Shown here: positions 6,156 through 31,227 of the stretch, one piece after another
Layout: every line of letters begins with the position of its first letter
How positions within the stretch are numbered: the first letter of the stretch is position 1
Assembly (NCBI GenBank): GCA_023230585.1
Contig: JALNXB010000001.1
Coordinates: forward strand, 69,847-133,846
Source: a bacterium
GTDB taxonomy: Bacteria > Ratteibacteria > UBA8468 > B48-G9 > JAFGKM01
Length of the DNA stretch: 64,000 nucleotides
Direction: 5' to 3'
Translations under genes and position numbers: made by a program
The notes under the pieces: generated by a model
The model's database searches: none
The model's input: the letters and a program-made list of their open reading frames with translations, nothing else
Told to the model about the DNA's origin: nothing

Positions 6156-6161
6156 TCATAA

Positions 6162-10021: not shown

Positions 10022-10026
10022 AGGGA
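9999..10026. repeat. 28-bp direct repeat (left copy) 'taaaagggaggattgatggataaaggga'
   Basis: Perfect identity with 10785-10812 by eye. Confidence 0.8.
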
Positions 10027-10784: not shown

Positions 10785-10812
10785 TAAAAGGGAGGATTGA
10801 TGGATAAAGGGA
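10785..10812. repeat. 28-bp direct repeat (right copy)
   Basis: Identical to 9999-10026. Confidence 0.8.
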
Positions 10813-13119: not shown

Positions 13120-13131
13120 AAGGAAAAAGAA

Positions 13132-13617
13132 ATGAGATACTTTTTTATGTTTATAGTTTTGTATATTATCTGGCTAATGGTAACTTGCAATATGGAGGTT
13201 GCCAATTTTTATGCTGGGGCAATCGTTGCTTTAATTGTTACAGCGTTATTTGGGAAAGAATTTCCTTACCACCCTAAACATACTTTTCAAATAAAGAGAT
13301 ACTTTGCATTTATTAAATTTTTAGGTGTCTTTTTTGTGCAGGTTGTACATGCTAACTTCATAATGGCTTATAGGGTTTTAAGTCCAAACTTACCAATTAA
13401 ACCGGGGATAGTAGAGATACCTCTCTATCTTAAATCCCCTCTGGGTAGAGTAATTCTTGCTAACGCTATCACTCTTGCGCCGGGCACTTTTACTATGGAC
13501 ATCACAAGTGATACACTTATATTACACTGGATATACGTACAGACAGAAGACCCACATAAAGCAGAAGAAATTATATGCGGTAGGTTACAAAGAATTCTTA
13601 AGGAGGTATTTGAATGA
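13132..13617 (+). CDS. MrpE-like subunit
   Basis: 161 aa, N-terminal hydrophobic; position in MrpA-G order. Confidence 0.45.
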   Translation: MRYFFMFIVLYIIWLMVTCNMEVANFYAGAIVALIVTALFGKEFPYHPKHTFQIKRYFAFIKFLGVFFVQVVHANFIMAYRVLSPNLPIKPGIVEIPLYLKSPLGRVILANAITLAPGTFTMDITSDTLILHWIYVQTEDPHKAEEIICGRLQRILKEVFE

Positions 13618-13868
13618 TTGCCTTATTAGTTTTTTTAACAGTGTGTGTTGCTTTGTGTGTCTACAGAATTTTTGTTGGACCTACTTCTGCAGACAGGATG
13701 GTAGGGATAGATATTCTTGGTATAATAGTTGTGATATTTTGTGTTCTATTGGCGTTATACACAGGTTTTGATTATTATATGAATATAGGTATCGCTTGGT
13801 CAATTATTGGTTTTGTTAGTACAATCACTTTTGCAAAGTTTCTTGAAGGGAGGCATTTAGATGAGTGA
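13614..13868 (+). CDS. MrpF-like subunit
   Basis: 84 aa hydrophobic, overlapping start/stop with neighbours. Confidence 0.45.
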   Translation: MIALLVFLTVCVALCVYRIFVGPTSADRMVGIDILGIIVVIFCVLLALYTGFDYYMNIGIAWSIIGFVSTITFAKFLEGRHLDE

Positions 13869-14181
13869 AGTTATTGGGCAAATATTTCTTGTTGTAGGGT
13901 TATGTTTTACATTTTTTGGATGTGTAGGGTTGGTAAGAATGCCTGACGTATACTGCAGGTTGCAGGCGGCAACAAAATGTGTTACTCTGGGAACAGGTAG
14001 TGTTTTGATAGGGGCTCTTATAATAACAGGGTTTACTGGTATAGGAATAAAATCTTTGGTATGTTTTATATTTCTTTTTTTAAACTCACCAACGGCTGCA
14101 CACGCTCTTGCTAAATCAGCTAAAGCTGCTGGAGTGCCTGTCTGGAAAAAAACTGAACCTGATAAAAACAAAAATCTCTAA
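13861..14181 (+). CDS. MrpG-like subunit
   Basis: 106 aa, N-terminal TM helices; end of Mrp module. Confidence 0.5.
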   Translation: MSEVIGQIFLVVGLCFTFFGCVGLVRMPDVYCRLQAATKCVTLGTGSVLIGALIITGFTGIGIKSLVCFIFLFLNSPTAAHALAKSAKAAGVPVWKKTEPDKNKNL

Positions 14182-14224
14182 CAACCTTTCTTAAAGGTCT
14201 TTAGCAACATTGTAAAAAAATAAA

Positions 14225-14494
14225 ATGCATGAACTTGTATTGATTTCAAATCTTTTAAAAATTCTTAACAAAATAAAAGAAGACGATAGGAATATATATT
14301 CTTTTCTGGCAATACATATTACTGTAAACCCATATAGTTGTATAGATGAGGAAAATCTTAATTTTATGTTTCGCTCTGTAGTCGGAAAAGAAGAGATATA
14401 TAAAGATGCTAAAATATGTGTAACAAGAGGGGCTAACCCTGCTGATAGAGAGTTTATACTTGATAATGTGGAGGTAGAGGTTTATGAAGAATAA
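14225..14494 (+). CDS. hypA: HypA-like hydrogenase nickel-insertion protein, N-terminal Ni-binding domain only (no Zn-finger CxxC...CxxC)
   Basis: Starts MHEL (conserved MHE Ni site) and resembles HypA N-domain; only two Cys in 89 aa; overlaps hypB start. Confidence 0.45.
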   Translation: MHELVLISNLLKILNKIKEDDRNIYSFLAIHITVNPYSCIDEENLNFMFRSVVGKEEIYKDAKICVTRGANPADREFILDNVEVEVYEE

Positions 14495-15602
14495 GGTTAA
14501 AACAATTAAGGTAGGAGCAAGCATATTGAAAGAAAATGATAAAATATCTGAAGAGAATAGGTTATTATTTGAAAAAAACAATGTGTGCTGTATAAATGTT
14601 ATGGGGTCTCCCGGTTCGGGTAAAACATCTCTACTTGAGAAGACAATACCTAAACTTAAATTAAAAAATATAAAACCTGGGGTTATAGAGGGAGATATAG
14701 AAGGAACGTTAGATGGTGAACGGCTTTTAAAATATGGTATACCTGTGGTGCAGATAAACACAGGGGGAGCGTGTCATCTGGATGCCAATATGGTAAAGAA
14801 AGGCCTTGAGAACCTCAATTTGAATGAGATAGATATCCTATTTATTGAAAATGTTGGCAATCTTGTATGCCCTGCTGCGTTTACTCTCGGCGAAAGTTAC
14901 AACGTTATTATTTCAAGTTGCCCAGAAGGAGAGGAAAAACCTTTAAAATATCCTTTGATGTTTAATATTTCTAATATATGCCTCCTTAATAAAATGGACT
15001 TGTCTGAACATTTGGATTTTAATACCAAACAATTTAAAGAGTACCTATTTAAGGTTGCGCCAGATACTAAACTTATACCGCTATCTTCAAAAACAGGAGA
15101 TGGTTTTGAAGAATGGTTAGATTTTCTTTACTTGTCTGCCCCTGAAAATAAAAAAGAACGTATAGTGGTGGTAGGTTTGGGGGATAGGATGAAAGGGGAC
15201 GATGCAGCAGGATGCGAAATAGCTGAACAACTTCATAAAGAGGATATCTCAGAGAATGTAAAAATAATTAATGCTGAAAACGCTATAGAAAACTATATTG
15301 GCGTGATAAAAGGATTTAAGCCAGATAGAATATATTTTGTTGACGCTGTTGACTTTAGTGGAACTCCAGGAGAAGTAAGACTTATGGAGGCAGGTTCTCT
15401 GGTAAGCAACACCTCTTCAACACATACTTTAGCTTTGCCGTTGATAATAGAAAATATTAAAGCAGAAACTTCTGCAAAATGTACTATCGTTGGAGTTCAA
15501 CCTAAAAAGATATTGTTTTCACAGAAGATTTCAAATGAGGTTAGGGAAGGTATTATGAATGCAGTTAAAATGTTGAGGGAAATATTATGGAAAAAGAGAT
15601 AG
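14484..15602 (+). CDS. hypB: Fusion of HypB nickel-GTPase and hydrogenase maturation endopeptidase (HycI/HybD-like)
   Basis: P-loop GSPGSGKTSLLEKT, CHLDANMV, ENVGNLVCPAAF (HypB) followed in same frame by VVVGLGDRMKGDDAAGCEIAEQL (HycI/HybD N-terminal signature). Confidence 0.75.
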   Translation: MKNKVKTIKVGASILKENDKISEENRLLFEKNNVCCINVMGSPGSGKTSLLEKTIPKLKLKNIKPGVIEGDIEGTLDGERLLKYGIPVVQINTGGACHLDANMVKKGLENLNLNEIDILFIENVGNLVCPAAFTLGESYNVIISSCPEGEEKPLKYPLMFNISNICLLNKMDLSEHLDFNTKQFKEYLFKVAPDTKLIPLSSKTGDGFEEWLDFLYLSAPENKKERIVVVGLGDRMKGDDAAGCEIAEQLHKEDISENVKIINAENAIENYIGVIKGFKPDRIYFVDAVDFSGTPGEVRLMEAGSLVSNTSSTHTLALPLIIENIKAETSAKCTIVGVQPKKILFSQKISNEVREGIMNAVKMLREILWKKR

Positions 15603-15952
15603 TTATGAAGTATGCAAATAAAGAAATCAAAATTTTAATGAAAGATAGCCGTTTAGCAAAAGCAATATGTGAGAAATTACCGTTTAAGGTGAATGTAAAT
15701 GTTTGGGGTAGAGAAATCTATTTTGAGATACCTGTAAAGTCCAGTATAACAGACTCTGTAATAGAACTTGAAGAAGGAGATGTGGCTTACTGGCCAGATG
15801 GAAGGTGTCTATGCTTTTTTTTCGGACCCACCCCAGCAAGCACAGGAACAAAACCAAAAGCTGCCGGTTATGTTGAGGTGGTTGGAAGGGTTACTTCTGA
15901 TTTGAAAGAACTTGAAAAGGTGAAATCAGGAGAAGAGGTGGTAATTGAATGA
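15587..15952 (+). CDS. Hypothetical protein, possibly cyclophilin-like (TM1367-type) fold
   Basis: Motif AYWPDGRCLCFFFGPTP recalled from cyclophilin-like DUF family; weak. Confidence 0.3.
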   Translation: MEKEIVMKYANKEIKILMKDSRLAKAICEKLPFKVNVNVWGREIYFEIPVKSSITDSVIELEEGDVAYWPDGRCLCFFFGPTPASTGTKPKAAGYVEVVGRVTSDLKELEKVKSGEEVVIE

Positions 15953-15965
15953 AGACGTAAAAAAC

Positions 15966-16145
15966 ATAAAAGACCCCCTCACCTTGCATCCTCTCCCCCA
16001 AAAGGAGAGGCAAATAAGGAAAGATTGTCATTCTGGGGTTTATCCCGAGTACCCTCGAGGGGCTTAACAGGCTCATAGTAGTAGAACAAAAGGCTTAAAC
16101 CTTTTGTTAACAGCCTCCCCATTCCGTCTTTTTTAGTTGACTTTC
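15966..16145. repeat. Dispersed modular intergenic repeat copy
   Basis: Modules 'gaccccctcaccttg...ctctccccc' (rc of module at 56497/17578), 'gtcattctggggtttatcccgagtaccctcgagggg', 'caaaaggcttaaaccttttgttaacagc', 'ccccattccgtctttt'. Confidence 0.6.
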
Positions 16146-16174
16146 TACTTATTTGGTAGTATAATACAAAAAAG

Positions 16175-17467: not shown

Positions 17468-17487
17468 AAATGTACCTCTTTTGTGAA

Positions 17488-17835
17488 GGGATTCCCCCTT
17501 ATATGTCATTCCGGATTTATCCCTCGGGGATACTTGGAACAAGCCGCCGAAAGCGGAAAAGGAATGTACCTTCTTTGCCCTCTAACCCTTGGGGGAGAGG
17601 GATCAAGGGTGAGGGGGTCTTTTGCTTTACGCTTTTGTTTTTATACGTTACTCCCCCCATTCCGTCTTTTGTAGTTAATCTTGCGAGTTTTACCCGCCGA
17701 AGGCGGAAAAGGAATGCACCTTCTCTTTGCCTTCTACCCTTGGAGTGTTTGGAGTAGTAGTCCCCAAAGGGTTGCAGAGAGTTTAATGGGATGAGGTTTA
17801 TCCCTCGAGGTACTCGGTAGACAAGCCTTTACAAT
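17488..17835. repeat. Dispersed modular intergenic repeat copy (composite)
   Basis: Modules 'ccccttatatgtcattccggatttatccc', 'gcggaaaaggaatg' (x2), 'ccctctaacccttgggggagagggatcaagggtgaggggg', 'ccccattccgtcttttgtagttaatcttgcgagttttacccgccgaagg', 'ttctacccttgg...gtttaatgggatgaggtttatccctcgagg'. Confidence 0.65.
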
Positions 17836-17865
17836 GACAAACAAGGCGCAAGGAATGAAACGTTA

Positions 17866-19944
17866 ATGATGAGAAAAAAACTGAAAATATGTAAAAACGG
17901 TCTTCCTAACAATACACCAAGCAAGATTAAACTGCCTCCAGACATCTCTATATGCAATGAGTGCCTTGAAGAACTCTTTTCACCACACAACAGAAGGTAT
18001 CTATACCCTTTTATAAATTGTTCTAACTGCGGACCTAAATTTTCTATCGTTAAAGATATCTCCTACAATAGAGATAAAACCTCTATGTATAAGTTTTCGA
18101 TGTGTCCTGATTGTTATAACGAATATACCAACCCATCAGATAGACGGTTTCACACACAATCTGTATGTTGTCCTGTATGTGGTCCAAAATATCTATTGTT
18201 TGATAAAAAAGGTACACAGGTAGGAACCTCCTTAGATGCAATAAAAAAAGCGGTCTCTTTTGTAGAAGAAGGGCATATAGTTGCAATGAAAGGGATAGGC
18301 GGGTACCACCTTGTTTGTGATGCTACAAAAGTGGAGACGGTAAAAACTCTTAGAGTAAGAAAAAAAAGAGGAGATAAACCGTTTGCGCTTATGTCAAAGG
18401 ATATAAATACAATAAAACAATATTGTATTGTAAATAAAGAAGAAAAAGAAACTCTTCTTTCAAAGAGAGCGCCTGTGGTTATTTTAAGGAGAAAAAAAAA
18501 TTGTTGTTTGCCCAGCGATATTGCTCCTAACAATAAATATTTAGGTTTTTTTCTACCATACACTCCTGCCCATTATATCTTATTCTATTTTGGTAGGTTT
18601 GACACAATCATTGCAACCAGTGCAAATATATCTGATGAACCTACTTTTTATCAAGATGCAGATGTTTGTGATAATCTTTCTGTTGTTGCAGACTACATTC
18701 TTACCAATAACAGAAAAATAGAGATAGGTTGTGATGATTCTGTTGTAAAAATTGAGAAATTTAACAAAAAAACACATATACTGAGAAGGTCTCGAGGGTT
18801 TGTACCAGAACCTATAAGAACACCTTTTTCTGTTTCGCAACCAGTCTTTGCAACAGGTGCTGATATGAAAAATACCTTTTCTTTTGGGGTAGGGAACAAT
18901 ATTTTTACAAGCCAACATATTGGAAATCTTGAAAACCTAAAATCTTTTTTATTCTATAAAAACAGTTACCAACATTGGAAAAAGATTACTGGGTTTACAC
19001 CAAAATTAGTGGCTTGCGACCTTCATCCTGATTATATGTCCAGTAGTTTTGCTAAAGAAGTGGCACAGAAAGAAGGTGTTCCTTATGTTGGAGTTCAGCA
19101 TCACCACTCCCATATTGCTGCTTGTATGCTTGAAAATATGCTTCCAAATAAAGACGTTATAGGTATTGCTTTAGACGGAACAGGGTTTGGAGAAGCAGAG
19201 GATATTAGGGGGTGTGAGGTTATGATTGCCTCTTATAGCGGATATAAAAGGTATGCTTGGCTCGATTACATAGGGTTACCTGGGGGGGACATCTCTGTTA
19301 AAGAAGTATGGAGAACAGGGTTGTCATATCTTTATAACTCTTTTGGTAAAGATGTTTCTGGTATGAATATATCTTTATTTAAAGATGTTCCTTTTAAAAA
19401 GATGTATGGGGTTTATGAGATGCTAAAAAAAGATATTAACTGTACTCTTGCCTCCAGTATGGGGCGGTTGTTTGACGGTGTTGCTTCAATAATAGGGTTA
19501 CAAAATGAGGTATCTTTTGATGCCCAAGCAGCCATTGCACTTGAAATGGTTGCAAATAAATCTTCTTCTACATTTTATTCGTTTGATATAAAACAAGCGA
19601 AAGACAAAGGTTCTTTTGTTATAGATTATACGCCTGTAATAAGAGATATTGTTAAAGATATCCTCAAAAATAAAGATGTTGGTCTTATCTCTTGCAAGTT
19701 TCACAAAGGAGTGGTTGAAATAATTACAGAAATATGTAAAGCCATAAAACAAGAAAAGAATATATCTGCAACAGTCCTTACTGGCGGGGTTTTCCAAAAC
19801 TCGTTTCTTATGAAAATGATGAGCGAAAAACTTACCAACGAAGGTTTTCAAGTATACACCCATAGTCTGTTACCTTCCAATGATGGCGGTATATCTGCAG
19901 GGCAAGTTGCTGTTGCTTCTTTTAGTCAGTTGGCTGAATTTTAA
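17866..19944 (+). CDS. hypF: HypF carbamoyltransferase lacking N-terminal acylphosphatase domain
   Basis: Two Zn-finger CxxC..CxxC pairs at N-terminus, YrdC-like VAMKGIGGYHLVCDA, C-terminal Kae1-like region; begins directly with Zn fingers. Confidence 0.8.
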   Translation: MMRKKLKICKNGLPNNTPSKIKLPPDISICNECLEELFSPHNRRYLYPFINCSNCGPKFSIVKDISYNRDKTSMYKFSMCPDCYNEYTNPSDRRFHTQSVCCPVCGPKYLLFDKKGTQVGTSLDAIKKAVSFVEEGHIVAMKGIGGYHLVCDATKVETVKTLRVRKKRGDKPFALMSKDINTIKQYCIVNKEEKETLLSKRAPVVILRRKKNCCLPSDIAPNNKYLGFFLPYTPAHYILFYFGRFDTIIATSANISDEPTFYQDADVCDNLSVVADYILTNNRKIEIGCDDSVVKIEKFNKKTHILRRSRGFVPEPIRTPFSVSQPVFATGADMKNTFSFGVGNNIFTSQHIGNLENLKSFLFYKNSYQHWKKITGFTPKLVACDLHPDYMSSSFAKEVAQKEGVPYVGVQHHHSHIAACMLENMLPNKDVIGIALDGTGFGEAEDIRGCEVMIASYSGYKRYAWLDYIGLPGGDISVKEVWRTGLSYLYNSFGKDVSGMNISLFKDVPFKKMYGVYEMLKKDINCTLASSMGRLFDGVASIIGLQNEVSFDAQAAIALEMVANKSSSTFYSFDIKQAKDKGSFVIDYTPVIRDIVKDILKNKDVGLISCKFHKGVVEIITEICKAIKQEKNISATVLTGGVFQNSFLMKMMSEKLTNEGFQVYTHSLLPSNDGGISAGQVAVASFSQLAEF

Positions 19945-21682
19945 ACTCAAACGCCTTGTGAATATCCTGCTCCAGTGCATCAAATTCTGTTAGACGTGTA
20001 GGTGGTATATATCTTGCTTTTACAATTGCTTCTCTTATATCCATTTTCATAATTTCGTCTAAATCTGCACCTTCTGAGATTTTTTTACTTGCCAGACGAT
20101 GAAAAAGTAGTATAGAGTTGAGCATTTTATACTGCTTTTGAAGTGTAGTATAAGAATCTCTTTCATCAAAAGCACTCTGGTGGAGAAAGTCTTCTCTAAT
20201 AGAGCGGGCTGTTTCCAGCACAAGTCTATCTTGTGCAGATAAAGTTTCCATTCCTACAAGACGGACAATCTCATTTAAGTCTGCCTCTTTTTCCAGTATA
20301 ACTATTGTATCATTCTTGTTTTTAATAAAATCTTCACCAACATCTTTAGTAAGAAAATCTTTGATATTGTCTTCATATAAAGAGTAACTTGTAAGCCAGT
20401 TTATGGCAGGGAAATGCCTCTGATAAGCAAGTTTATCGTCAAGACCCCAGAATACCTTGACAACTCTAAGAGTCATCTGTACAACAGGGTCTGTTAGGTC
20501 GCCACCGGGAGGGCTTACAGCGCCTATAACAGATAGAGAACCTGTCTTTTCTGCCTGTCCAAGGCAAGAGACTTTTCCTGCTCTTTCATAAAATGATGCT
20601 ACACTTGTTCCCAAGTAAGCAGGGTATCCTTCTTCGCCGGGCATTTCTTCCATTCTACCTGACATTTCTCTTAAAGCCTCTGCCCATCTACTGGTTGAAT
20701 CTGCCATTAATGCTACAGAATATCCCATATCTCTAAAATATTCTCCAAGAGTTATTCCAGTATAGATAGAAGCTTCCCTTGCAGCCACAGGCATATTAGA
20801 TGTATTGGCTATAAGAATGGTACGCTCCATCAAAGGTCTGTCAGAAGCAGGGTCTTTAAGTTCAGGGAACTCTATCAGAACATCAGCCATCTCATTGCCT
20901 CTCTCGCCACAACCTATATAAACTATTATTTGTGCGTCTGCCCATTTTGCTACCTGGTGCATAACTACTGTTTTTCCGCTACCAAACGGACCTGGAATAC
21001 AAGCAGTACCACCTTTCATAACAGGGAAAAGTGTATCTATAATTCGTTGCCCAGTAACAAGAGGTTGGTCGGGAGAGAGTTTGTTTTTTACAGGTCTTCT
21101 TTGGCGTACAGGCCATTTTTGCATAAGGTAGAAAGGTGTCTCACCTTTGTTTGTCTTGATTTTGCCTATAACATCTTCAACCGTAAAATCTCCTGCTTTT
21201 ATTTCTATTAATTCACCTTCCAAATAAGGTGGTAACATTATTTTATGCATAAGTAACGGGGTTTCCTGCACTTCGCCAACAATATCTCCGCCTTTAAGGT
21301 GGTCTCCTTTACTTACAAAAGGAGTAAATTTCCACTTCTTTTCCCTGTCTAACGGAGGCATTTCTAACCCTCTGAGTATAAAATCTCCTCCTGCTTCAAG
21401 TTTAGACAAAGGTCTTTGTATCCCGTCAAATATATTTGTTAGAAGTCCAGGACCAAGTTCTACTTCAAGAGGTACACCTGTTTCATAGACAGGGTCGCCG
21501 ACTTTAAGGCTTTCTGTCTCTTCATATACTTGAATAGAGGCGATATTATCTTCAATACGTATTACTTCTCCAACAAGCCGTACATCGCCAACCCTCACAA
21601 CATCATACATTTTTGCTCCGCTCATTCCTTCTGCTTGAACAAGAGGTCCGCTTACCTTAATTATTCTACCTTGTTGAGCCAT
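19922..21682 (-). CDS. atpA: V-type (A/V) ATP synthase catalytic subunit A
   Basis: Walker A GPFGSGKT, 586 aa, N-terminal beta-barrel region typical of V/A-type subunit A. Confidence 0.85.
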   Translation of the reverse strand: MAQQGRIIKVSGPLVQAEGMSGAKMYDVVRVGDVRLVGEVIRIEDNIASIQVYEETESLKVGDPVYETGVPLEVELGPGLLTNIFDGIQRPLSKLEAGGDFILRGLEMPPLDREKKWKFTPFVSKGDHLKGGDIVGEVQETPLLMHKIMLPPYLEGELIEIKAGDFTVEDVIGKIKTNKGETPFYLMQKWPVRQRRPVKNKLSPDQPLVTGQRIIDTLFPVMKGGTACIPGPFGSGKTVVMHQVAKWADAQIIVYIGCGERGNEMADVLIEFPELKDPASDRPLMERTILIANTSNMPVAAREASIYTGITLGEYFRDMGYSVALMADSTSRWAEALREMSGRMEEMPGEEGYPAYLGTSVASFYERAGKVSCLGQAEKTGSLSVIGAVSPPGGDLTDPVVQMTLRVVKVFWGLDDKLAYQRHFPAINWLTSYSLYEDNIKDFLTKDVGEDFIKNKNDTIVILEKEADLNEIVRLVGMETLSAQDRLVLETARSIREDFLHQSAFDERDSYTTLQKQYKMLNSILLFHRLASKKISEGADLDEIMKMDIREAIVKARYIPPTRLTEFDALEQDIHKAFEFKIQPTD

Positions 21683-21710
21683 TATGTGCTTCTCCTTAAC
21701 TATTATAAAA

Positions 21711-22013
21711 TTATTCTTTCATACCTGTTGCCGTTCTTATCAGGTCTTCTACTATCTGGTATCCTTTACCTATATTAGATGTAAGACTTGGTAAAGGAAG
21801 TAGTTGTTTACGCATAACATATTTAGAAAGAAGGTCTCTGTCAAAGACTTCTTCAGTTATAAAAATTATAGAATAGTCTGAAAAACTAATATTTTTAATA
21901 ATTTTGACAGCTTCTTCAACTGTTGTTGCAGGGAAAATTTCTGCACCAAAAATTTTAAAAAAACCTACCGATGTTTTATCGCCTATAAATCCTATTTTTT
22001 TATTTTCTTCCAT
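21711..22013 (-). CDS. atpF: V-type ATP synthase subunit F
   Basis: 100 aa, IGFIGDKTSVGFF...IIFITE pattern matching NtpG/F subunits; immediately upstream of atpA. Confidence 0.6.
   Translation of the reverse strand: MEENKKIGFIGDKTSVGFFKIFGAEIFPATTVEEAVKIIKNISFSDYSIIFITEEVFDRDLLSKYVMRKQLLPLPSLTSNIGKGYQIVEDLIRTATGMKE
21923..21961. repeat. 39-bp direct repeat copy A (inside atpF coding sequence)
   Basis: 'ttgttgcagggaaaatttctgcaccaaaaattttaaaaa' identical to 30243-30281. Confidence 0.8.
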
Positions 22014-22116
22014 TTTTTTCTAATTATAATGTAAATTGTTTATAAACTAAAATTTGATTGCAAAGATACGTTATTAAATATACAATAAAATCGAATAACT
22101 TACAAGGGGAAAAGCA

Positions 22117-22465
22117 GGTGGATATATATGTTGGTATAGATATTCTTGAATTTAATAGGTTTCAAAAGGTTCTTAAAAAACGTAGAGATAGGTTTTTAGA
22201 TAGGGTTTATACAGATAAAGAGGTTGCCAATACACCTAAACTAAAAGAAGAGTTATTTTTATGTTTTACTTTCTCTTTTAAGGAATCTATATGGAAAGCC
22301 TTACCAGATTATTTACAGAAAGAGGTTGGCTTTAAGGATATAGAAATTATATGGAGAAGAAGAAAACCTCAAATATTTATTAAGGGCAAGCACTATTTCA
22401 AAACAGTATCCCACTTTTTTGAAATGGATGGAAATGTTGTCACTCTGGTTATAATAACAGTATAA
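22117..22465 (+). CDS. acpS: Holo-[acyl-carrier-protein] synthase (4'-phosphopantetheinyl transferase); probable GTG start after GGGGA RBS (ORF track begins 22058)
   Basis: IYVGIDILEFNRF...RFLDRVYTDKE and FKDIEI motifs align with AcpS GxDxxE and downstream regions. Confidence 0.6.
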
Positions 22466-22499
22466 GGCTTTTTTAAAATCAGTTACTTTTTGGAAGGTC

Positions 22500-22640
22500 T
22501 GTTTACAACCCGTTCATCAGAGGTTCTCGGGATAAACCTTGCCGTTAGATGGGCAAAGAATTGGACAATACGCAGTTCCTTTAGATGAGTGGGCTTGAGG
22601 CAAACTTCTCTATAAAATGAACGGTGTTTACTAATGATTT
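22500..22640. repeat. Dispersed modular intergenic repeat copy
   Basis: 'ttctcgggataaacc' (rc of ggtttatcccgag module) and 'gaacggtgtttactaatgat' (cf. 'ggacggtgttcactgaagat' at 30385 and 'ggacggtgttcgctg' at 43232). Confidence 0.5.
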
Positions 22641-22714
22641 ATTGTAGAGAATAGGACATTAAAAGGCGAAAGGGAATAATTTGTTATAAATATTTATGAG
22701 ACGAAATACTTTCA

Positions 22715-23311
22715 TTAAAGAATATTCTTTCCGTTGTTTACTTTTGTATGACTTTCAGAGAATATTTTATAATTACGACGGTTGTAACCAAAAAGTTCTT
22801 GGTCTTGTAACCCCTTACGTTCTAATAACTTAGCCATACAATCGGGTTCAATAACTATAATATTAACATTAAATATAAGCCATCTGAAGTAACTGAAATC
22901 TTTATCGAAGATTTGTTGTATCGTAGAACCTTTATACTTGCCAAATTGTATTATTGTTGATTCATAATATATCTTTGTTTTCTTGGATACTCGCACTTTC
23001 TTCTTCATCATTTTATCTTTGACATATGTTCCGTTAACCAGTTTAACATTCACATGTTTCCAGCGATATACCCCAGCATTGTGGATAATACGTTCGGAGT
23101 TCCACTCTGGATAGTAGGTGTATATATCAGAAGGTGTTCCGTTGATTGTAGGATAACCACGTGCAACTCCATATGGCCAACGTCTGATTTTTATCTCTTC
23201 AACAATAGTATATCTATTTTCATTCCAACTATCCAACCATGCAGCAAGTGGCAATAATTCTCCATTATATTTCCAAATTTGAAAGAGGTTTAGTTTGTTG
23301 TGTATACACAT
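22715..23311 (-). CDS. Hypothetical protein; C-terminal FGKYKGSTIQQIFDKDFSYFRWL resembles DUF3820/ExoX C-terminal-like motif
   Basis: Motif recollection only; N-terminal region unrecognised. Confidence 0.3.
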   Translation of the reverse strand: MCIHNKLNLFQIWKYNGELLPLAAWLDSWNENRYTIVEEIKIRRWPYGVARGYPTINGTPSDIYTYYPEWNSERIIHNAGVYRWKHVNVKLVNGTYVKDKMMKKKVRVSKKTKIYYESTIIQFGKYKGSTIQQIFDKDFSYFRWLIFNVNIIVIEPDCMAKLLERKGLQDQELFGYNRRNYKIFSESHTKVNNGKNIL

Positions 23312-23329
23312 ACGATTTTTCCAATGTAA

Positions 23330-26300
23330 TTAATTCTCATAATAAGGAGATGGCACTGAAGGATAAGCTCGATATATATGATAGAAAACATCTTGTGCTT
23401 TTTTAACAACTTCAGTATGAGCATAACATTGCAGGGGTAATCCTGTTTTTTCATCCCATAAGAAATCTCTAATCAAGCTTCTTACTGCATCCCTTGTGGG
23501 TTCTCTGTTCTGCCAGTTATAGAGTCCTTGTAATTTTTCTTTTAGTTTTACCAGCAACGCTTCAGCAACTCTTTTTATTTTTTTAATCTCTGAAGGCGTT
23601 AATTGCGGTTTTGCAAGAAGGTCATATATTGCAAGCGTTTCTTCGTCCATACCCTCTTTCAATGCTCTTTTTTCTTCGTTATCCAAATCCTCATAAAATT
23701 TCAAAAGGGCTTCAAATGTAGCTTCAATACTTTTTCTGTCTTTTTCTTTGTTGTACTCATCAATGATTCTTTCATAATGTTCCTGGAAGTTTGTCCGAAG
23801 GGGATTCTTCATAATAAGCTGCTGCAATTTTTTCTCAATAACAGTTTTTAATTCTTGCACCACAGTATTTTTAGCTCTGGTTTTTTCAAATTCAGTTCGA
23901 AGTAGGTTAAAATCAATTTTACTTACATCATAAGGTGCGCTTTTGTCTTCTAAAGGTGTGCCTGTAACAACCGCTTCATCTACTATTTTATGCAACTTCT
24001 TGATAATATTGCTTATATCTGCAGATTCCCTGTCTTCCTGCAAGCTTTTATATATAATGTTGATAGCGCTGTAATAACCTCGGTATTCATTTACTTCCGG
24101 TATAGTGAGGCATGCCTTAAACTTAATAAAAACTTCTCTGCATATTACTTCAAATTTTTTTCTGGTTTCATCATTGACATTTACAGCTTCTTTGATCAGA
24201 ACAATATTGCTGTTTCTCTCAAATCCACTCGAATTTATGATGTCGGTCAGCGACACTTTTTCATCTGACAGAAATTCTTTCACCATCTTAATGGTTTCTC
24301 TCAATTCTCCCAGAAGTTGTTCTTTGGTTCTTGTGGGGTCTACCTTTTCCAATCCAGGGCTACCTTGCCTGCCTTTATCGGTTGTTCCAGCAAATGTGGC
24401 AAGTGCCTTTCTTAAATTCTTGAGGATGCCACAATAATCTATAATAAGCCCATTGTTTTTATCCTTGTTAACACGATTAGCTCTTGCTATCGCTTGCATT
24501 AGAGTGTGAGCTTTAAGTGGTTTATCAAGGTAAAGGTTTGCAAGGCTTGGCACATCAAAACCTGTAAGCCACATAGCACAAACAATGGCTATGCGGAAAG
24601 GATGCTCCTCTTTTTTGAATGCGGAATCAACATCAATCCGTGTTCCGTCTGAAAGTTCAAACCCGTTTTTCATCAATCTGCGGTGAGGAGTGATATCAAA
24701 CCCACATTTTCTAAACTTGTCTACTTCTCCCTGTTCTTCGCTGACAATTACTGCCATTTTTGTCTCTTGCATCCATTTAAGTTGATTTGATAGTTCTTCT
24801 CTGGTTTCATCTGAGGCAGACTTTAATAAGTTTGACAATTCTTCCTCTTTATTCTTCCAGTATAGATTTATGAGCTTGTGCATTTTGACACAAGTGAGTT
24901 TATCAATACATATAAACATCGCCTTGCCTGCTTCCCATGAAGTTGTGTAATGCTCGACAAAATCTTGGGCTATATCTTTAAGCCTTCTCTTTGCCGTGAT
25001 TATGTGATAATCTCTTCTGAGTTCTTTTTCAAGGCGTGCCCTCAAATTGATATCTTCTGTATCTACCTGCTCCAGTTTTTCTGCAAGCCGTTCATTAATA
25101 TCCGAAGTAGACACCCCGAGTGTATCGCCCCGGGAATCGTAATAAAGAGGAACCGTGGATTTGTCTTCCACTGCTCTTTGGAAATCGTATGTGGAAACAT
25201 AGTTACCGAAAACTTGTGAAGTGATTTCCTCATCTTTAAACAAAGGTGTGCCTGTAAATCCTATAAAGTTGGCGTTTGGCAGGGCTTTACGCATATTGAG
25301 TGCAAGATTGCCGTATTGCGTACGGTGTGCCTCGTCTGTAATAACAATTATATCGTCTCTCTTGGTATAACCCTCATCGGTGTTAACGTCTTGATTGAAT
25401 TTTTGAATTGTGGTAAATACATAAGCCTTGTGTTGCCTCATTAGTTTGGCAAGGTGCTTGCCGCTTTCGGGTCGACACGGATTTCTATCGTTATCCACTA
25501 TGCCACACCCTGCAAAAGTCTGGTAAATCTGTTTATCGAGGTCGTCGCGGTCAGTACATATAAGAAACGTATAGTTACCTGCTATCTTTCTATGTACCTT
25601 GGTGGTAAAAAATACCATAGAGTAACTTTTACCTGCACCCTGGGTATGCCAAAATACTCCAAGTTTGCCTTTTGCTCTGGAAGGATTTTTTAGGGCTTTG
25701 ATTACTTTGTTCACGCCAAGATACTGGTGGTTCTTTGCAAGTATCTTTATTCTTTTGCCTTTAGAATCGTCATAAAGAATAAAATTCTCAAAAATATCCA
25801 AGAAATTGTTTTTATCACAAACCCCTTTAAGAAGTGTTTCCATATCTATAATACCCGGGTCGGATTCAGATAATCGTTTCCAATCGTGGAAGTGTTCGTA
25901 ACCTGCGGTTATGCTTCCTATTTTTGCTTTTTCGCCGTTGGCAAGCATAATGATAGCGTTATGATGGAAAAAATGGGGGATAGTATCTTTGTAATCGGCA
26001 AGGTTTTTTCTGTATGCGTTTTCAAGGTTTCTATGGATATTTTTGCACTCTACAAATAAAAGGGGTATGCCGTTGACAAACCCTGCGATATCAACTCTCC
26101 TGCGATAAAGACTGCCCTGTACCCACAGTTCACGTACAGCCATAAAGTGATTATTTGTAGCATCATCAAAATCAAAGACCTTGAGCCGTTCTTTTTTTAT
26201 CTCCCCGTTGCTGCCCTGAAAAGAAACAAGCACGCCGTCTTTGAATAATTTGTATTTATCGAAATTGTTGGCAAGTAGTGATTGGCTCTGGGAATAGTCC

Positions 26301-26536
26301 ATAACCTGCCTCACCGCCTCTTCATATACGGTTTCAGGCAGTTGGGGATTAAGTTTTTCAAGTGCTTGTCGTAGATAACGTTTAAGTACAACCTCCCTGT
26401 CGGAATCTCTTCCCAGAAGCCCGTCAACGTCAAAAGTTTCACGATTATAAGCATAAACAGATTCCCATCCGAGATTATCTTTGAGGTAATCTACGGTTGG
26501 TTTCTGTACCAGAGTATCTTCGTTAAAGTTAGTCAT
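23330..26536 (-). CDS. hsdR: Type I restriction enzyme R subunit (HsdR)
   Basis: 1068 aa; helicase motifs incl. DEAH (VITDEAHRTQYG); adjacent hsdS/hsdM. Confidence 0.9.
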   Translation of the reverse strand: MTNFNEDTLVQKPTVDYLKDNLGWESVYAYNRETFDVDGLLGRDSDREVVLKRYLRQALEKLNPQLPETVYEEAVRQVMDYSQSQSLLANNFDKYKLFKDGVLVSFQGSNGEIKKERLKVFDFDDATNNHFMAVRELWVQGSLYRRRVDIAGFVNGIPLLFVECKNIHRNLENAYRKNLADYKDTIPHFFHHNAIIMLANGEKAKIGSITAGYEHFHDWKRLSESDPGIIDMETLLKGVCDKNNFLDIFENFILYDDSKGKRIKILAKNHQYLGVNKVIKALKNPSRAKGKLGVFWHTQGAGKSYSMVFFTTKVHRKIAGNYTFLICTDRDDLDKQIYQTFAGCGIVDNDRNPCRPESGKHLAKLMRQHKAYVFTTIQKFNQDVNTDEGYTKRDDIIVITDEAHRTQYGNLALNMRKALPNANFIGFTGTPLFKDEEITSQVFGNYVSTYDFQRAVEDKSTVPLYYDSRGDTLGVSTSDINERLAEKLEQVDTEDINLRARLEKELRRDYHIITAKRRLKDIAQDFVEHYTTSWEAGKAMFICIDKLTCVKMHKLINLYWKNKEEELSNLLKSASDETREELSNQLKWMQETKMAVIVSEEQGEVDKFRKCGFDITPHRRLMKNGFELSDGTRIDVDSAFKKEEHPFRIAIVCAMWLTGFDVPSLANLYLDKPLKAHTLMQAIARANRVNKDKNNGLIIDYCGILKNLRKALATFAGTTDKGRQGSPGLEKVDPTRTKEQLLGELRETIKMVKEFLSDEKVSLTDIINSSGFERNSNIVLIKEAVNVNDETRKKFEVICREVFIKFKACLTIPEVNEYRGYYSAINIIYKSLQEDRESADISNIIKKLHKIVDEAVVTGTPLEDKSAPYDVSKIDFNLLRTEFEKTRAKNTVVQELKTVIEKKLQQLIMKNPLRTNFQEHYERIIDEYNKEKDRKSIEATFEALLKFYEDLDNEEKRALKEGMDEETLAIYDLLAKPQLTPSEIKKIKRVAEALLVKLKEKLQGLYNWQNREPTRDAVRSLIRDFLWDEKTGLPLQCYAHTEVVKKAQDVFYHIYRAYPSVPSPYYEN

Positions 26537-26567
26537 GGTTTTTTCTTTGCGGATTTAAGAATTTTTT

Positions 26568-26867
26568 TTATATGTCTGTCAAAAGGTTATAGAATTTTGT
26601 CTGATAAGTTTTTCCGTCATTTGCAGTATGTGCAAATTTTGCACATACTGAATTTTCTTTTAACTCTCCGCTCTTAAAGATGTTTTTAAGATGTTTGGTA
26701 ATCACGCTTCTGTCAACCTTGAACAGTTCAGCAATTTTTGCCTGAGTCAACCATATTGTCTCGTTGCGTAAAAATATCTCCACCTTCACCTTGCCGCCAG
26801 GGGTAGTATAGAGCAGGAATTTCGTAAATTCGTTTTGCTGGATAATCTGCTTGTTTTTTTTAATCAT
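26568..26867 (-). CDS. RhuM-family protein, N-terminal fragment only (99 aa)
   Basis: Resembles N-terminus of RhuM-like proteins commonly found between hsdS and hsdR; remainder of family absent. Confidence 0.45.
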   Translation of the reverse strand: MIKKNKQIIQQNEFTKFLLYTTPGGKVKVEIFLRNETIWLTQAKIAELFKVDRSVITKHLKNIFKSGELKENSVCAKFAHTANDGKTYQTKFYNLLTDI

Positions 26868-28211
26868 TTATACCTCTATCTTACCGTTCATCAGACGAGG
26901 CAGAAGCAAATCTCTCGCCTGTGTGAGTTTCTGGTTTTGGTTTCTTAAATAAGAACATTGTTCCAAAAGTGAATTGACGATTTTTGAATATTGTTCAATT
27001 AAGTCTATTTTAGGTAAAAGCACTTTTATTTTTTTTAAGCTACTGTCGTTGAGAGATACCTGTGTTGCTCCAGTAGCATAATTATTCTTATATTGCACAA
27101 ACTCATAGGAAGTTAAAAGCCCAAACAAGAAGCCTAAATACTTTTCCTCTGTTGTGAAACCAACCATTCCTGTTGAAAGTATTATTTTGGAAAGTAAAAA
27201 AGAATTCCCTTTATTAAAATACAACACCTTTTCTGTATCTTTCATTTTGGCAAAATATATAGTATTAATTTTGGGCAGGACATCTGCTCGGCTCGGTCTA
27301 TTTTCATAATCTACTTCTTCTCCATATCCTGTTATATTTGTTCCGTCAATTTCTGAGGTCTGATAATATTGACGTATATCAGTAAAAACGGGCATTCCCA
27401 AAGGAGCCTTTTTAAATATTTTTATTTTTGTAATCGGTAAATAATCCCACTCGGCAGGCATCTTTTTGCCTTTACCATCAACTATTTTTATTTTTTCATA
27501 TCCTGGGAAACGAAAATATACAAACCATTCTCTGAAGAGAAGGCGTGCCGATTCTTCCAACAATTCTATCCGCCTTTGATTAGTTTCAATAAGGTCGTCA
27601 TAGGTAGAGAGTATATTTGCGATTTTTTTTTGATCTCCAATATGTGGAAGTAATAATGAAATATCTCCAAGCATGGCAAGATTAATGTTAGGTTGTGCTG
27701 CTTGGGCATTAATACTTTGCAAGTATTTAAATGTCAATGGGTTTTTAAACCAATAATAAATATATTGGCTATTGGCTAATTCTGGTTTGATTCGCACTAT
27801 ACCAACAGCTTGATTTGTATTTGCAGGCAAATGTTTTCGTTTTATAATTCCAACTTTGCCAATATTAATTCCTGCTATTGTAACTAAAATATCGTTTTCT
27901 TGAAGAATAGACCGCTTTAATTTATTTTGAGCAGATTCGTTTATATAAGCAAACCCTTGAGTATCGAGTTCGCTATCCCCATTTAAAGCTTCTGCTTTAA
28001 TAAAATTTATGCCAGAATCAGTAAAATCAAAACCAACTGTTGTTGGAGTTGTTCCCTTTGTTATCCTGTCAGTGATACATTTTAACTTAACGATTTGCTT
28101 CATATCCCAACCTCTTAAAGTTTTCGCTGATTTTCTTTGCAAGTTCGCCTGCTGTTTTATTAAGTTCATCCAATTCCGTGTGTATTGCAAGCATTGTTCC
28201 GCTAAAGTCAA
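26868..28211 (-). CDS. hsdS: Type I R-M specificity subunit (HsdS), two target-recognition domains; true start probably internal Met near 28103
   Basis: Size, two repeated TRD-like halves with conserved coiled-coil spacers (LIETNQRRIELLEE.., LTQARDLLLPRLMNGKIEV). Confidence 0.8.
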   Translation of the reverse strand: MTLAEQCLQYTRNWMNLIKQQANLQRKSAKTLRGWDMKQIVKLKCITDRITKGTTPTTVGFDFTDSGINFIKAEALNGDSELDTQGFAYINESAQNKLKRSILQENDILVTIAGINIGKVGIIKRKHLPANTNQAVGIVRIKPELANSQYIYYWFKNPLTFKYLQSINAQAAQPNINLAMLGDISLLLPHIGDQKKIANILSTYDDLIETNQRRIELLEESARLLFREWFVYFRFPGYEKIKIVDGKGKKMPAEWDYLPITKIKIFKKAPLGMPVFTDIRQYYQTSEIDGTNITGYGEEVDYENRPSRADVLPKINTIYFAKMKDTEKVLYFNKGNSFLLSKIILSTGMVGFTTEEKYLGFLFGLLTSYEFVQYKNNYATGATQVSLNDSSLKKIKVLLPKIDLIEQYSKIVNSLLEQCSYLRNQNQKLTQARDLLLPRLMNGKIEV

Positions 28212-30213
28212 AATCAGGGTCTTCTTCTTCAGGTGTTACACCTACATATCTTCCAGGAGTTAAACTCCAGTCATTTTCTTCAATCTCTTTTTTGTCAACC
28301 AGTTTAACAAGCCCTTCTACATCTCTTAGTTTTTCTTCGGGAAACCGTTCGAGAAGCCATTCTGCCTGATGAAAAAAATATCTAACAAGTTTTAACTGCT
28401 TAACCAATATATCCCGCGTTTCTTCTGCCTGCTTTTTAAGGTTGGTTATCTCGCGGTTATTTTCTTTGCTGTTTCCATTGTTGTTCGTATTAATAAAATC
28501 CTCTGTCAGCCGGTTTGCAAGCCGATACATAAGTTCTGCTTCTTTTATAAGTTTATTATTTTCTTCTGCTAGAGGTTTAAGTTTCTCCAAAATCTTTAGC
28601 GAATTCAACTTCTCTTTGTTTTTCCGCAAATGCATTTCCTCAGGCATTTCTGCAAGAATCTTTGTGTAGTTTTTGCTAATGTTTTTATAAGTTCTCGTGC
28701 TTACCGTAAGTTTACCGGCAATTTCGTATTGTTTACTGTTAACAGGAAGCTGCTCAATAAACGATTTAAGCTTTTTGTACAACTCTTCAAAATCTTGCTC
28801 GTATTGGCATGTGAGCAATTGTATATGTGCAGATTCATCAAGGAACCTTAACATATAATTTAGCACCAGTTTATGGAATCGGTCTGTTTCTCCCCTGTAT
28901 AGCCATACTATAGAGAGGATGTTTTGAAGTTGTTCTGGACTGAAATCATAAATTTTGCGGGTCACTTTTCTGTAGATGTTTCGCGCATCTATCATCAAGA
29001 CCTTATCTTTCTGCGCTTTAGATTTACCTTTGTTGAAAAACCAGAGTTCACAGGGAACAGTGCGGGTATAGAAGAAATTTGAGCGGATGGCTATCATAAC
29101 ATCAACATCACCTGTTTCTACAATTTTCTGTCTAACCTTTGATTCGCTCTTTCCTGCGCTTGATGCCTGCGAAGACATTACAAAACCTGCTCTGCCTTTT
29201 TCTGTAAGATAACTGTAAAAATAGCTTATCCAGATATAGTTGCCATTGCTTACCTTTCCTTTTTTATTGACACCCGGCAAACCGAAAGGTAATCGAGGAT
29301 CGTTTTTTATTTTATCTGCATCTATTTCATCCACATTAAAGGGAGGATTTGCCATAACAAAACCTGCCTTTTTATACAAGTCATGGGGGTCTTCATAGTA
29401 GGTAATCGCCTTTTTTATATCTCCTACCAGACCGTGCACAGCAAGGTTCATTTTAGCTAGATTGATGGTTGTTGCATTTTTTTCCAGACCATAAAAAGAT
29501 AAGGCGTCCGTAGGATTTTTATGAAGATTTTCCACAAAACGAGCGCTCTGAACAAACATCCCTCCGCTTCCGCAGGCAGGGTCAAGTACTGTACCTCTTT
29601 TGGGTTCAAGGACATTGGCAATAAGAGAGACAAGTGATACGGGCGTGAAAAATTCTCCCCCATCGTGAGCTTTTAAGTCGGCAAACTGAGTAAGAAAATA
29701 TTCGTAAATTCTGCCGAAGACGTCCCCGTCAACTTTTTTAAGTTCTTCCGGATTCAGTACTCGGAGCAGATGCCCGAGTATTTCATTGTCCAGTTCTCTG
29801 TATTCTCTTTTAGGTAGAACGCCACGCAAAGTTTCATAATCCGCTTCAATAGATTCCATAGCGTCAATAATAGCCTTTGCCCGGTCGTCGCTGTCTTTCA
29901 GTGTGACGAGATAGTCAAATTGGGCTTTCTGTTGCAAGAAAATAGCTGATTTTTTGCTGAAATCTTCTTTGGTTATAGGCCGTTTTATTCCGCCTCTCGT
30001 AGGAAGAGTCTCTTCAATCGTATCTTTTACCGCTAAATAACGGCTATAGGCATGCCGTAAAAAGACTAGCCCCATAACTGGCATAAAGTATTCGTTGCTG
30101 GCATAATTGGAATTGGCTCGTAGTGTGTCTGCCGCGCTCCAGAGCCTTTTTTCGATTGCTTCGATATTTGCAAGTTGTGCCATAATATACTCGTAGAGAA
30201 ATATCTGTTTCAA
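28087..30213 (-). CDS. hsdM: Type I R-M N6-adenine DNA methyltransferase (HsdM), long form with C-terminal coiled-coil extension
   Basis: AdoMet motif LDPACGSGGMF and catalytic NPPF (VMANPPFNVDE). Confidence 0.9.
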   Translation of the reverse strand: MKQIFLYEYIMAQLANIEAIEKRLWSAADTLRANSNYASNEYFMPVMGLVFLRHAYSRYLAVKDTIEETLPTRGGIKRPITKEDFSKKSAIFLQQKAQFDYLVTLKDSDDRAKAIIDAMESIEADYETLRGVLPKREYRELDNEILGHLLRVLNPEELKKVDGDVFGRIYEYFLTQFADLKAHDGGEFFTPVSLVSLIANVLEPKRGTVLDPACGSGGMFVQSARFVENLHKNPTDALSFYGLEKNATTINLAKMNLAVHGLVGDIKKAITYYEDPHDLYKKAGFVMANPPFNVDEIDADKIKNDPRLPFGLPGVNKKGKVSNGNYIWISYFYSYLTEKGRAGFVMSSQASSAGKSESKVRQKIVETGDVDVMIAIRSNFFYTRTVPCELWFFNKGKSKAQKDKVLMIDARNIYRKVTRKIYDFSPEQLQNILSIVWLYRGETDRFHKLVLNYMLRFLDESAHIQLLTCQYEQDFEELYKKLKSFIEQLPVNSKQYEIAGKLTVSTRTYKNISKNYTKILAEMPEEMHLRKNKEKLNSLKILEKLKPLAEENNKLIKEAELMYRLANRLTEDFINTNNNGNSKENNREITNLKKQAEETRDILVKQLKLVRYFFHQAEWLLERFPEEKLRDVEGLVKLVDKKEIEENDWSLTPGRYVGVTPEEEDPDFDFSGTMLAIHTELDELNKTAGELAKKISENFKRLGYEANR

Positions 30214-30242
30214 AACTGCTTTCTATAAGGATTTTACAGTTA

Positions 30243-30281
30243 TTGTTGCAGGGAAAATTTCTGCACCAAAAATTTTAAAAA
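30243..30281. repeat. 39-bp direct repeat copy B (non-coding fragment of atpF sequence)
   Basis: Identical to 21923-21961; flanking sequence does not maintain an ORF. Confidence 0.8.
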
Positions 30282-30294
30282 CTATCATGCTTCA

Positions 30295-30404
30295 TCACCC
30301 TACGCCAAGGTTTATCTGCCAAGTTTGTAGTTTAATGTAGGTTGGATTGGAGGAAAGTCGTGGAGGATTGCCCATTTCCCTACAAACTGGACGGTGTTCA
30401 CTGA
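30295..30404. repeat. Dispersed modular intergenic repeat copy
   Basis: 'caaggtttatctgccaag' and 'ctggacggtgttcactgaagat' modules. Confidence 0.45.
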
Positions 30405-30432
30405 AGATTTATCTTTTTTAAATAATATTTGG

Positions 30433-31227
30433 TTAAAAAAGTGGTGTGCCGATCTCCTGTTCAGCTTCTTGGATGAATTGATAATGAGAGTACCTCTTTA
30501 AACAAGAAGCCGCTTGGTGGTCTATAAGAATAGTAATTTTCGGGTGTAATTGCAGAATAGACGCTGGTACTATACTTGTTATTGGACCTTCAAGAGCCTT
30601 AGCAACAATTTCAGCTTTATTTTTACCTGTTGCAAGAAAGAGTATTTCTTTAGCTTCAAGAATCGTGCCTATACCCATTGAAATAGCAAACCTGGGAACC
30701 TCTTTTATATCAGTAAAAAACCTTGAATTATCTTGTATCGTCTGTTTATCGAGAGCAACAAGGCGTGTTCTTGATTTAAAAGAGGAACCCGGTTCATTAA
30801 AAGCAATATGTCCGTCGCCTCCTATACCGAGAATTTGTAAGTCTATACCACCTGCTTCAATGATTGTTTTCTCGTATAGTTGGCAGTATTGAGCCACTTC
30901 TTTGACGTTTAGGTCACCTTTTGGGATAAAGGTATTATTCTGGTTGATATCAATATGGTCAAAGAGGTTGGTCTTCATATAATATCTGTAACTTTGAGGA
31001 TGAGATGAATTGATACCATAATATTCATCAAGATTAAAGGTTTTCACATTACAAAAAGATATTTCTTTATCTTTATTTAACCTAACCAACTCTTTATATA
31101 GTTCGAGTGGAGTACTTCCTGTTGCCAGTCCAAGAGTGGTGTCAGATTTTTTGTTGACAAGATTTTTTATGATTCTGCTTGCTTCTTGTGAAATTTCTTT
31201 ATAATCTTTTTTAATTATCACTCTCAT
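30433..31227 (-). CDS. nagB: Glucosamine-6-phosphate deaminase (NagB/6-phosphogluconolactonase family)
   Basis: 264 aa, N-terminal and GIGxDGH-like (ILGIGGDGHIAFNEPGS) signature. Confidence 0.75.
   Translation of the reverse strand: MRVIIKKDYKEISQEASRIIKNLVNKKSDTTLGLATGSTPLELYKELVRLNKDKEISFCNVKTFNLDEYYGINSSHPQSYRYYMKTNLFDHIDINQNNTFIPKGDLNVKEVAQYCQLYEKTIIEAGGIDLQILGIGGDGHIAFNEPGSSFKSRTRLVALDKQTIQDNSRFFTDIKEVPRFAISMGIGTILEAKEILFLATGKNKAEIVAKALEGPITSIVPASILQLHPKITILIDHQAASCLKRYSHYQFIQEAEQEIGTPLF

Follow-up and report, generated by a model that had tools for sequence, protein, structure and literature searches.

The window, by which we mean the whole stretch of 64,000 nucleotides (nt) analyzed here (contig JALNXB010000001.1 of assembly GCA_023230585.1, forward-strand positions 69,847 to 133,846), raises the question of how a Type I restriction-modification (R-M) locus came to lie between two perfect 39-nt direct repeats, one of which is part of atpF, the gene for subunit F of a vacuolar-type (V/A-type) ATPase (V-ATPase). 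A first-pass annotation, made from the sequence alone, had proposed that an ancestral V-ATPase operon was split by the insertion of, or recombination with, an R-M island, the 39-bp repeats being the recombination sites. The gene order in relatives overturns this operon-splitting story. We favor, with moderate confidence, a different answer, in which the genes pta and ackA were replaced by a foreign mosaic and the repeat copy outside atpF (copy 2) is a scar left by the installation of the R-M cassette.

A search with AtpA against genome contigs places the organism among Omnitrophota/Ratteibacteria-like metagenome-assembled genomes. In the closest species (L007/L097; L numbers denote loci fetched for comparison) the genes are ordered lytB-S1-pgl-pta-ackA-GGDEF-acpS<-atpF-atpA->hypF, while L103 reads S1-pgl-pta-...-ackA-acpS, ackA adjoins acpS in L012, L104 and L106, and a GGDEF gene adjoins acpS in L098. 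In the window, the interval between pgl and acpS is occupied by an ExoX-like_C gene and hsdM-hsdS-rhuM'-hsdR in place of pta-ackA(-GGDEF), and neither pta nor ackA is found anywhere in the 64 kb. The relatives vary among themselves in the pgl-acpS interval and also between acpS and atpF. The substitution is real; judged from these gene orders, the R-M genes arrived by replacement within a variable interval and not as an insertion bracketed by its own repeats. The features of the locus, with gene calls checked against Pfam, NCBIfam and PADLOC, are as follows.

17866 to 19944, + strand: hypF, convergent with atpA, an adjacency kept in relatives
19922 to 21682, - strand: atpA, canonical catalytic subunit A of the V/A-ATPase, Walker A motif GPFGSGKT
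21711 to 22013, - strand: atpF, subunit F of the V/A-ATPase, intact, N-terminus conserved with relatives
21923 to 21961: copy 1 of the 39-mer, inside atpF at coding-sequence nucleotides 53-91, codons 18-31
22118 to 22465, + strand: acpS, holo-acyl-carrier-protein synthase, native, divergent from atpF as in relatives
22466 to 22714: junction region A, with a mosaic-repeat module (22516-22539) and an imperfect 37-nt direct repeat (22606-22642)
22715 to 23311, - strand: gene for an ExoX-like_C protein of 198 residues, a separate foreign module
23330 to 26536, - strand: hsdR, Type I restriction subunit, intact
26568 to 26867, - strand: rhuM remnant of 99 residues, the N-terminal 95 codons and then a frameshift
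26868 to 28103, - strand: hsdS, specificity subunit
28087 to 30183, - strand: hsdM, methyltransferase subunit, intact
30208 to 30242: spacer of 35 nt, separating the last position of cassette homology from copy 2
30243 to 30281: copy 2 of the 39-mer, outside coding sequence, 60-98 nt ahead of the start codon of hsdM (ATG at 30183)
30282 to 30432: junction region B, with a mosaic-repeat module (30307-30342) and the other copy of the 37-nt imperfect repeat (30376-30412)
30433 to 31227, - strand: pgl, 6-phosphogluconolactonase, the conserved right-hand flank, next to which pta lies in relatives
left of 33464, - strand: S1-domain protein gene and lytB

All of the first-pass gene calls (atpF, acpS, hsdR, the rhuM fragment, hsdS, hsdM, hypF and atpA) were confirmed in the three databases, and the overlap of hypF with the stop of the convergent atpA comes out at the same 23 nt from the coordinates of the open reading frames (ORFs). 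The 5' end of atpF is native, since the N-terminus that it encodes is conserved in relatives.

Only subunits F and A of the V-ATPase are present, as had been noticed at first reading: the B, D, E, C, I and K subunits found no match in the 64-kb window, and the complete operon, with A, B, D, E, C, F, I and K together, is not there. V-ATPase genes are also absent from the neighboring 7.5 kb on the left and 9 kb on the right of the window, where hydrogenase and central-metabolism genes lie instead. A window reduced to F and A, R-M genes of foreign origin and direct repeats of which one is in atpF are what a split operon would leave, but the order acpS<-atpF-atpA->hypF, or its core atpF-atpA->hypF, occurs without R-M genes in at least ten relatives (L007/L097, L008/L096, L009, L010, L012, L098, L103 and L104), so that the island did not split a V-ATPase operon. 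At the level of genes, these relatives show the arrangement that the first-pass annotation had named as fatal to its model. Furthermore, about 30 relatives with an AtpA identity of at least 68% have no atpB, atpD or genes for I, K, E and C within 10 kb of atpA; B and D are the genes whose place downstream of atpA had been thought to be taken by hypF. In more distant relatives (AtpA identity of 65% or less) atpB directly follows atpA, and L024, an exception to the F-A-only pattern, runs K-E-C-F-A and stops there, an unrelated convergent gene coming next. With atpF intact, its 5' end and acpS native, and the cassette standing in the place of pta-ackA and not of ATPase genes, the splitting of an operon is extremely improbable. 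The ORF at 42754-43077, once thought stalk-like, matches no family and resembles none of the E, C and K subunits of the relatives, and a search for AtpB homologues, aimed at a stand-alone atpB-atpD in Omnitrophota, returned mostly proteins from Firmicutes and Latescibacteria.

The F-A arrangement is ancestral and, from its distribution over the loci compared, is an old, clade-wide one that predates the R-M island and is unrelated to its arrival. It is a more curious by-product of this analysis than the R-M locus. The AtpA of the stand-alone pair (876 bits on PRK04192; best solved match PDB 1vdz, 775 bits) looks fully catalytic. The relatives compared for the pair are loci L007-L021, L024 and L096-L109, and the closest of them have it convergent with hypF. 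In L100 (1985-5296) and L105 (7979-11287), atpA is broken close to the P-loop by about 1.5 kb of intein-like sequence (VMA-type), at a point that corresponds to residues ~249 and ~250 of the protein from the window.

The cassette is of foreign origin and modular. Positions 23339-30207 of the window are 82-92% identical at the nucleotide level to an hsdM-hsdS-rhuM-hsdR cassette on the JGI contigs L090-L093 (the homology of the hsdM part running from 28099 to 30207), where DUF5659, an HTH_17 gene, a tyrosine integrase (Phage_integrase) and tRNA-Leu come after the cassette, an end that the window cassette lacks. HsdM homologues at 75-78% identity come from Planctomycetota, Firmicutes, the Candidate Phyla Radiation, Chlamydiae, Atribacteria and one archaeon, so that the family is a widely transferred one. 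The initial view of the R-M genes as a foreign, mobile block is thus borne out. Composition, which had been put forward as a check, would not flag the island alone: codon usage deviates mildly (z -0.3 to -1.8), and hsdR (0.355) and hsdM (0.370) have the highest GC content at third codon positions among the genes of the window, the others reaching at most 0.336.

Relative to the L090 type, rhuM has lost ~706 nt by an out-of-frame internal deletion (junction 26583/26584, with 2 nt of microhomology) from a gene of 346 codons, and its 99-residue remnant matches only the first ~85 positions of the PADLOC PDC-S05 profiles. In hsdS, the DNA match is confined to the conserved central region and the 3' end, so that the target-recognition domains differ from those of the L090 type. 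Beyond about 24 nt, the region upstream of hsdM is unrelated to that of the L090 type, and an apparent upstream likeness (AACAAT..CTGTAAAA, window vs L090) did not exceed shuffled sequences. The three R-M subunits occur together with full-length domains, as is expected of a Type I system: HsdR comprises HSDR_N, SWI2_SNF2/ResIII and a C-terminal domain (TIGR00348, 476 bits; cutoff 284), HsdM comprises HsdM_N and N6_Mtase (PADLOC MTase_I, 857 bits), and HsdS has two Methylase_S repeats. Because all three subunit genes (hsdR, hsdS and hsdM) are intact, restriction and methylation of DNA by the system probably continue. The ExoX-like_C gene forms a module apart, its homology to relatives being confined to 22709-23311, and belongs to a very small family with three clusters among 5.8 billion proteins (L115-L118). 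Its homologue in L115 adjoins an IS21 IstB gene, and UvrD-helicase, PDDEXK and NACHT genes are found in the same neighborhood. On L090 (18684-21945; also in L091-L093), a perfect 134-nt direct repeat (20080-20213 and 21812-21945) overlaps the 3' end of the tRNA and brackets hicAB.

The 39-mer, TTGTTGCAGGGAAAATTTCTGCACCAAAAATTTTAAAAA, has two exact copies in the window, both on the + strand, and the recurrence of the atpF piece as a non-coding fragment that had first drawn attention to the locus is therefore correct. Their starts are 8320 nt apart and 8281 nt lie between them, in agreement with the ~8.28 kb reported at first; copy 1 had rightly been placed inside atpF, its codon range (given as ~15-29) requiring correction. 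Copy 1 encodes FKIFGAEIFPAT, a conserved segment of AtpF. No further near-match with up to 3 mismatches is found in the window, and none of 100 shuffles contained any 39-mer match, placing the pair far above chance. The similarity of the two copies ends abruptly at both edges: beyond the 39 nt, extension of the repeat is not significant on the right (p about 0.24) and marginal on the left (14/500 shuffles), where the match falls within cassette-derived sequence and is taken as chance.

Several independent assemblies contain the same repeat, four others than that of the window holding it in the same contexts. Locus L001 is identical to the window, copy 2 is spanned at 100% identity by L004 (ERZ27247346) and L006 (JGI 3300028603), and copy 1 is spanned by L002 and L003. 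Since 39 is one of the default k values of MEGAHIT, a chimeric join at a shared k-mer had to be considered, but both contexts occur at 100% identity in separate samples processed with different assemblers, atpF runs unbroken through copy 1 and aligns collinearly with its homologues, and each copy shows branching at its two edges in the k=31 Logan graph, with contigs L087 and L089 ending exactly 30 nt inside each copy, as predicted for a genuine two-context repeat. The likelihood of an assembly artefact is accordingly negligible. The 39-mer is missing from 112 of the 118 fetched loci, the six carriers being the same organism; an exact scan of the JGI metagenome_contigs returned no match, and look-ups of the exact AtpF, Pgl, HsdM and ExoX-like proteins returned only the same strain with the same arrangement. 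The repeat is real and confined to two places in the sequence examined, and the concern voiced in the first-pass annotation, that it might be a common genome-wide repeat, finds no support in these data.

Copy 2 is located between the end of cassette homology (30207) and a native-type mosaic repeat of region B, and both of its flanks are unrelated to atpF. It begins no more than 36 nt past the last position of cassette homology and abuts native-type sequence, which places it at the junction of foreign and native DNA. Regions A and B both carry modules of the genome's own mosaic intergenic repeats: the module at 22516-22539 matches 56691-56714 and that at 30307-30342 matches 10417-10453, each with a score above all 200 shuffles. 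The family occupies sites at 1-60, 10022-10796, 15953-16174, 17468-17865, 43078-43317 and 56395-56808, and its modules, 25-60 nt in length, occur in both orientations and in varying order (for example, GTCATTCCGGA..TCCGGAATCTCG hairpins and GGTTTATCCCGAG). One block of the family, 775 nt long (about 10.0-10.8 kb), interrupts a Mbh/Mrp-type hydrogenase cluster, and an ENA assembly splits into two contigs there. At either junction of the foreign block, no extra filler fragments of 15 nt or more were found.

Its position in the 5' region of hsdM, in the same sense as atpF, together with its perfect conservation and an in-frame ATG before it, could mean that copy 2 has a function, be it as a promoter or operator, as a protein or RNA binding site shared with atpF that couples the two genes, or as a leader mini-ORF (MIVFKIFGAEIFPATITVKSL). 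A promoter scan, however, found nothing inside the 39-mer, and its one good match (TTGAAA-18-TATATT) is downstream of the repeat; RNA structure near copy 2 is not significant (z = 0.48), and no Rfam family was detected in the region. The upstream region of the related cassette also differs, and a recent origin would explain the perfect identity equally well. A functional role for copy 2 is very improbable.

That the two 39-mers are relics of the insertion of a mobile element, either attachment (att) sites of a lost integrase or a long target duplication, is suggested by the nearest related cassette, which adjoins a tyrosine integrase and an excisionase-like gene, and by the resemblance of an identical core with both arms different to an attB/attP pair. 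The locus also agrees with the formal screen for long target duplications of Furuta, Abe & Kobayashi 2010 (PMC2853133), which looks for R and M genes inside an insert of <20 kb and a direct repeat of >30 bp; here hsdR and hsdM lie within 8281 nt between copies of a perfect 39-bp repeat. The geometry of either kind of insertion is a different matter. Both arms of copy 1 are atpF sequence and neither arm of copy 2 is, unlike an attL/attR pair, and the sequence to the right of copy 2 is not the 5' end of atpF. Between 17 and 34 kb of the window, there is no integrase, recombinase, transposase or tRNA, and the ORFs encode no recombinase domain, whereas the related cassette has one and stands beside tRNA-Leu, not beside atpF. 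Finally, the comparators show a substitution and no empty site, and a metagenome scan based on AtpF found no relative closer than 71% identity, hence no empty site at the level of strains. With the 5' end of atpF and acpS, both native, between the repeats, and with neither integrase nor tRNA, the repeats, initially claimed to mark recombination sites, are not simple insertion or att sites, and a mobile-element relic is unlikely. Taken jointly, two further ideas are quite improbable, namely that the 39-mer pair is an active or recently active recombination site, with an unrecombined attB-like copy in atpF, an attP-like copy next to the R-M cassette and a recombinase encoded elsewhere, or that the clade-wide F-A pair, which has no B or D subunit within 10 kb in about 30 genomes, is a self-contained A/F ATPase module and not half of a scattered V-ATPase operon.

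A second, imperfect direct repeat of 37 nt is shared by regions A and B (81% identity, z about 8.6); it is found in no other fetched locus, and a third copy of its motif, at 43236-43252, is no better than chance (E about 0.4). On the acpS side, the 37-nt pair lies closer to the foreign block than the 39-mer pair. Occurring in the same order on both sides, this older repeat would be consistent with copy 2 being the leftover of a longer duplication, tandem or segmental, that began at 21923 and was imprecisely deleted to 39 nt, as would the direct orientation of the 39-mers and the left edge of copy 2 (30242|21923-type), which resembles a tandem-duplication joint. Such a history, however, needs two imprecise events, the second almost exactly reversing the first; no more collinear similarity is found between 21962-22605 and 30282-30375, and the 39-mers are 100% identical vs 81% for the 37-mers, so that their ages differ. 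A duplication remnant therefore appears doubtful. The perfect identity of the 39-mer copies suggests that the event behind them was recent relative to the older 37-nt repeat.

Copy 2 is most likely a scar of illegitimate recombination, although we can only infer the mechanism. Illegitimate recombination or break repair would have installed the cassette and removed pta-ackA-GGDEF, leaving at the hsdM-side junction 39 nt of filler or templated DNA copied from atpF, 8.3 kb away. In this organism, pta-ackA(-GGDEF) between pgl and acpS has been replaced by a foreign mosaic of ~7.5 kb, composed of the ExoX-like_C gene and a Type I R-M cassette that lacks the integrase module and in which rhuM has decayed. 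The flanks of copy 2, unrelated to atpF, fit an inserted patch, and the many modules of 25-60 nt common to the intergenic regions make the copying of short segments appear frequent in this lineage.

Several points weigh against this scar reading. Patches of 39 nt templated from 8 kb away are, to our knowledge, not well documented in bacterial recombination, and neither edge of the patch shows microhomology. The uniqueness of the 39-mer applies only to the window, the 118 fetched loci and the JGI metagenome_contigs. The closest loci available for comparison come from other species (AtpF at most 71% and AtpA at most 81% identity), so that the order and number of events cannot be reconstructed, and the loss or move of pta-ackA could be independent of the arrival of the cassette. 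L007, with the same gene order over >15 kb and an AtpA identity of 81%, has 51% GC vs 37% for the window, a large shift between syntenic relatives.

In and beside the window, two observations stand apart from the R-M locus. Positions 1-16000, together with L119 (about 7.5 kb left of the window), form a large hydrogen-metabolism neighborhood, in which an [FeFe]-hydrogenase with HydE/F/G maturases lies just left of the window and is followed by a group-4 [NiFe] membrane hydrogenase of the Mbh/Mrp type and then by hypA-like, hypB-hycI and hypF genes. In addition, a 231-nt direct repeat with 82% identity (35862-36092 and 36955-37185) is located in two neighboring ORFs of one strand (35814-36914 and 36907-37938), which points to tandem paralogues.

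The locus is a clean case, in an uncultured Omnitrophota/Ratteibacteria-like lineage, of a conserved locus at which a Type I R-M cassette without mobility genes arrived by substitution and displaced genes of the acetate-kinase pathway (pta and ackA) from that position. It is a fairly ordinary gene-swap site with one small unexplained feature, the 39-nt patch. It illustrates that a direct repeat derived from a gene and lying beside a defence island does not alone define the ends of the island. If patches of this kind recur as junction scars, they could be used to trace how defence cassettes without an integrase are installed.

Insertion of R-M genes with long target duplication was reportedly described by Nobusato et al. 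in 2000. The locus shares with such cases a repeat of >30 bp that is unique in the sequence examined, R and M genes inside, a size of <20 kb and the lack of a transposase or integrase. In the long-target-duplication class (PMC2853133), however, the duplicated target brackets the inserted DNA only and is single-copy at the empty site, whereas the copies here enclose 52 nt of atpF, the promoter region of that gene and acpS, all native, and the site in relatives is not empty, carrying pta-ackA-GGDEF. Closer is the 'substitution' class of Furuta, Abe & Kobayashi 2010 (PMC2853133), the allelic substitution of R-M gene complexes where the locus itself is conserved. It resembles our locus in its conserved flanks (pgl on one side and acpS/atpF/atpA/hypF on the other), in intervals of >1 kb with unrelated genes in the comparators, in an R-M unit that has no mobility gene and in flanking repeats that do not align as a single target in the other genome. 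It differs in that our comparators are species and not strains, the genes replaced here are housekeeping genes (pta and ackA) and not another R-M system, and one repeat is an internal gene fragment from 8 kb away, with native genes between the repeats.

Compared with the L090-L093 cassette, the window copy has the same gene order and gene sizes, at 82-92% identity over hsdM, the hsdS core, the 5' end of rhuM and hsdR, but differs by the ExoX-like_C gene after hsdR, a different region upstream of hsdM and the missing integrase/tRNA end. Neisserial intergenic mosaic elements and minimal mobile elements offer a further parallel, since gene cassettes, R-M systems included, are exchanged there between conserved flanks without dedicated mobility genes. 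Intergenic regions made of short, shuffled repeat modules are found in both, a resemblance to be taken as a lead only; the phyla are unrelated, and the modules here are known as sequence, not as recombination targets or in connection with natural transformation. By its gene content, the locus is a Type I R-M system and, by the geometry of its repeats, belongs neither with the long-target-duplication loci nor with the integrase islands; its layout is that of an allelic-substitution-like exchange.

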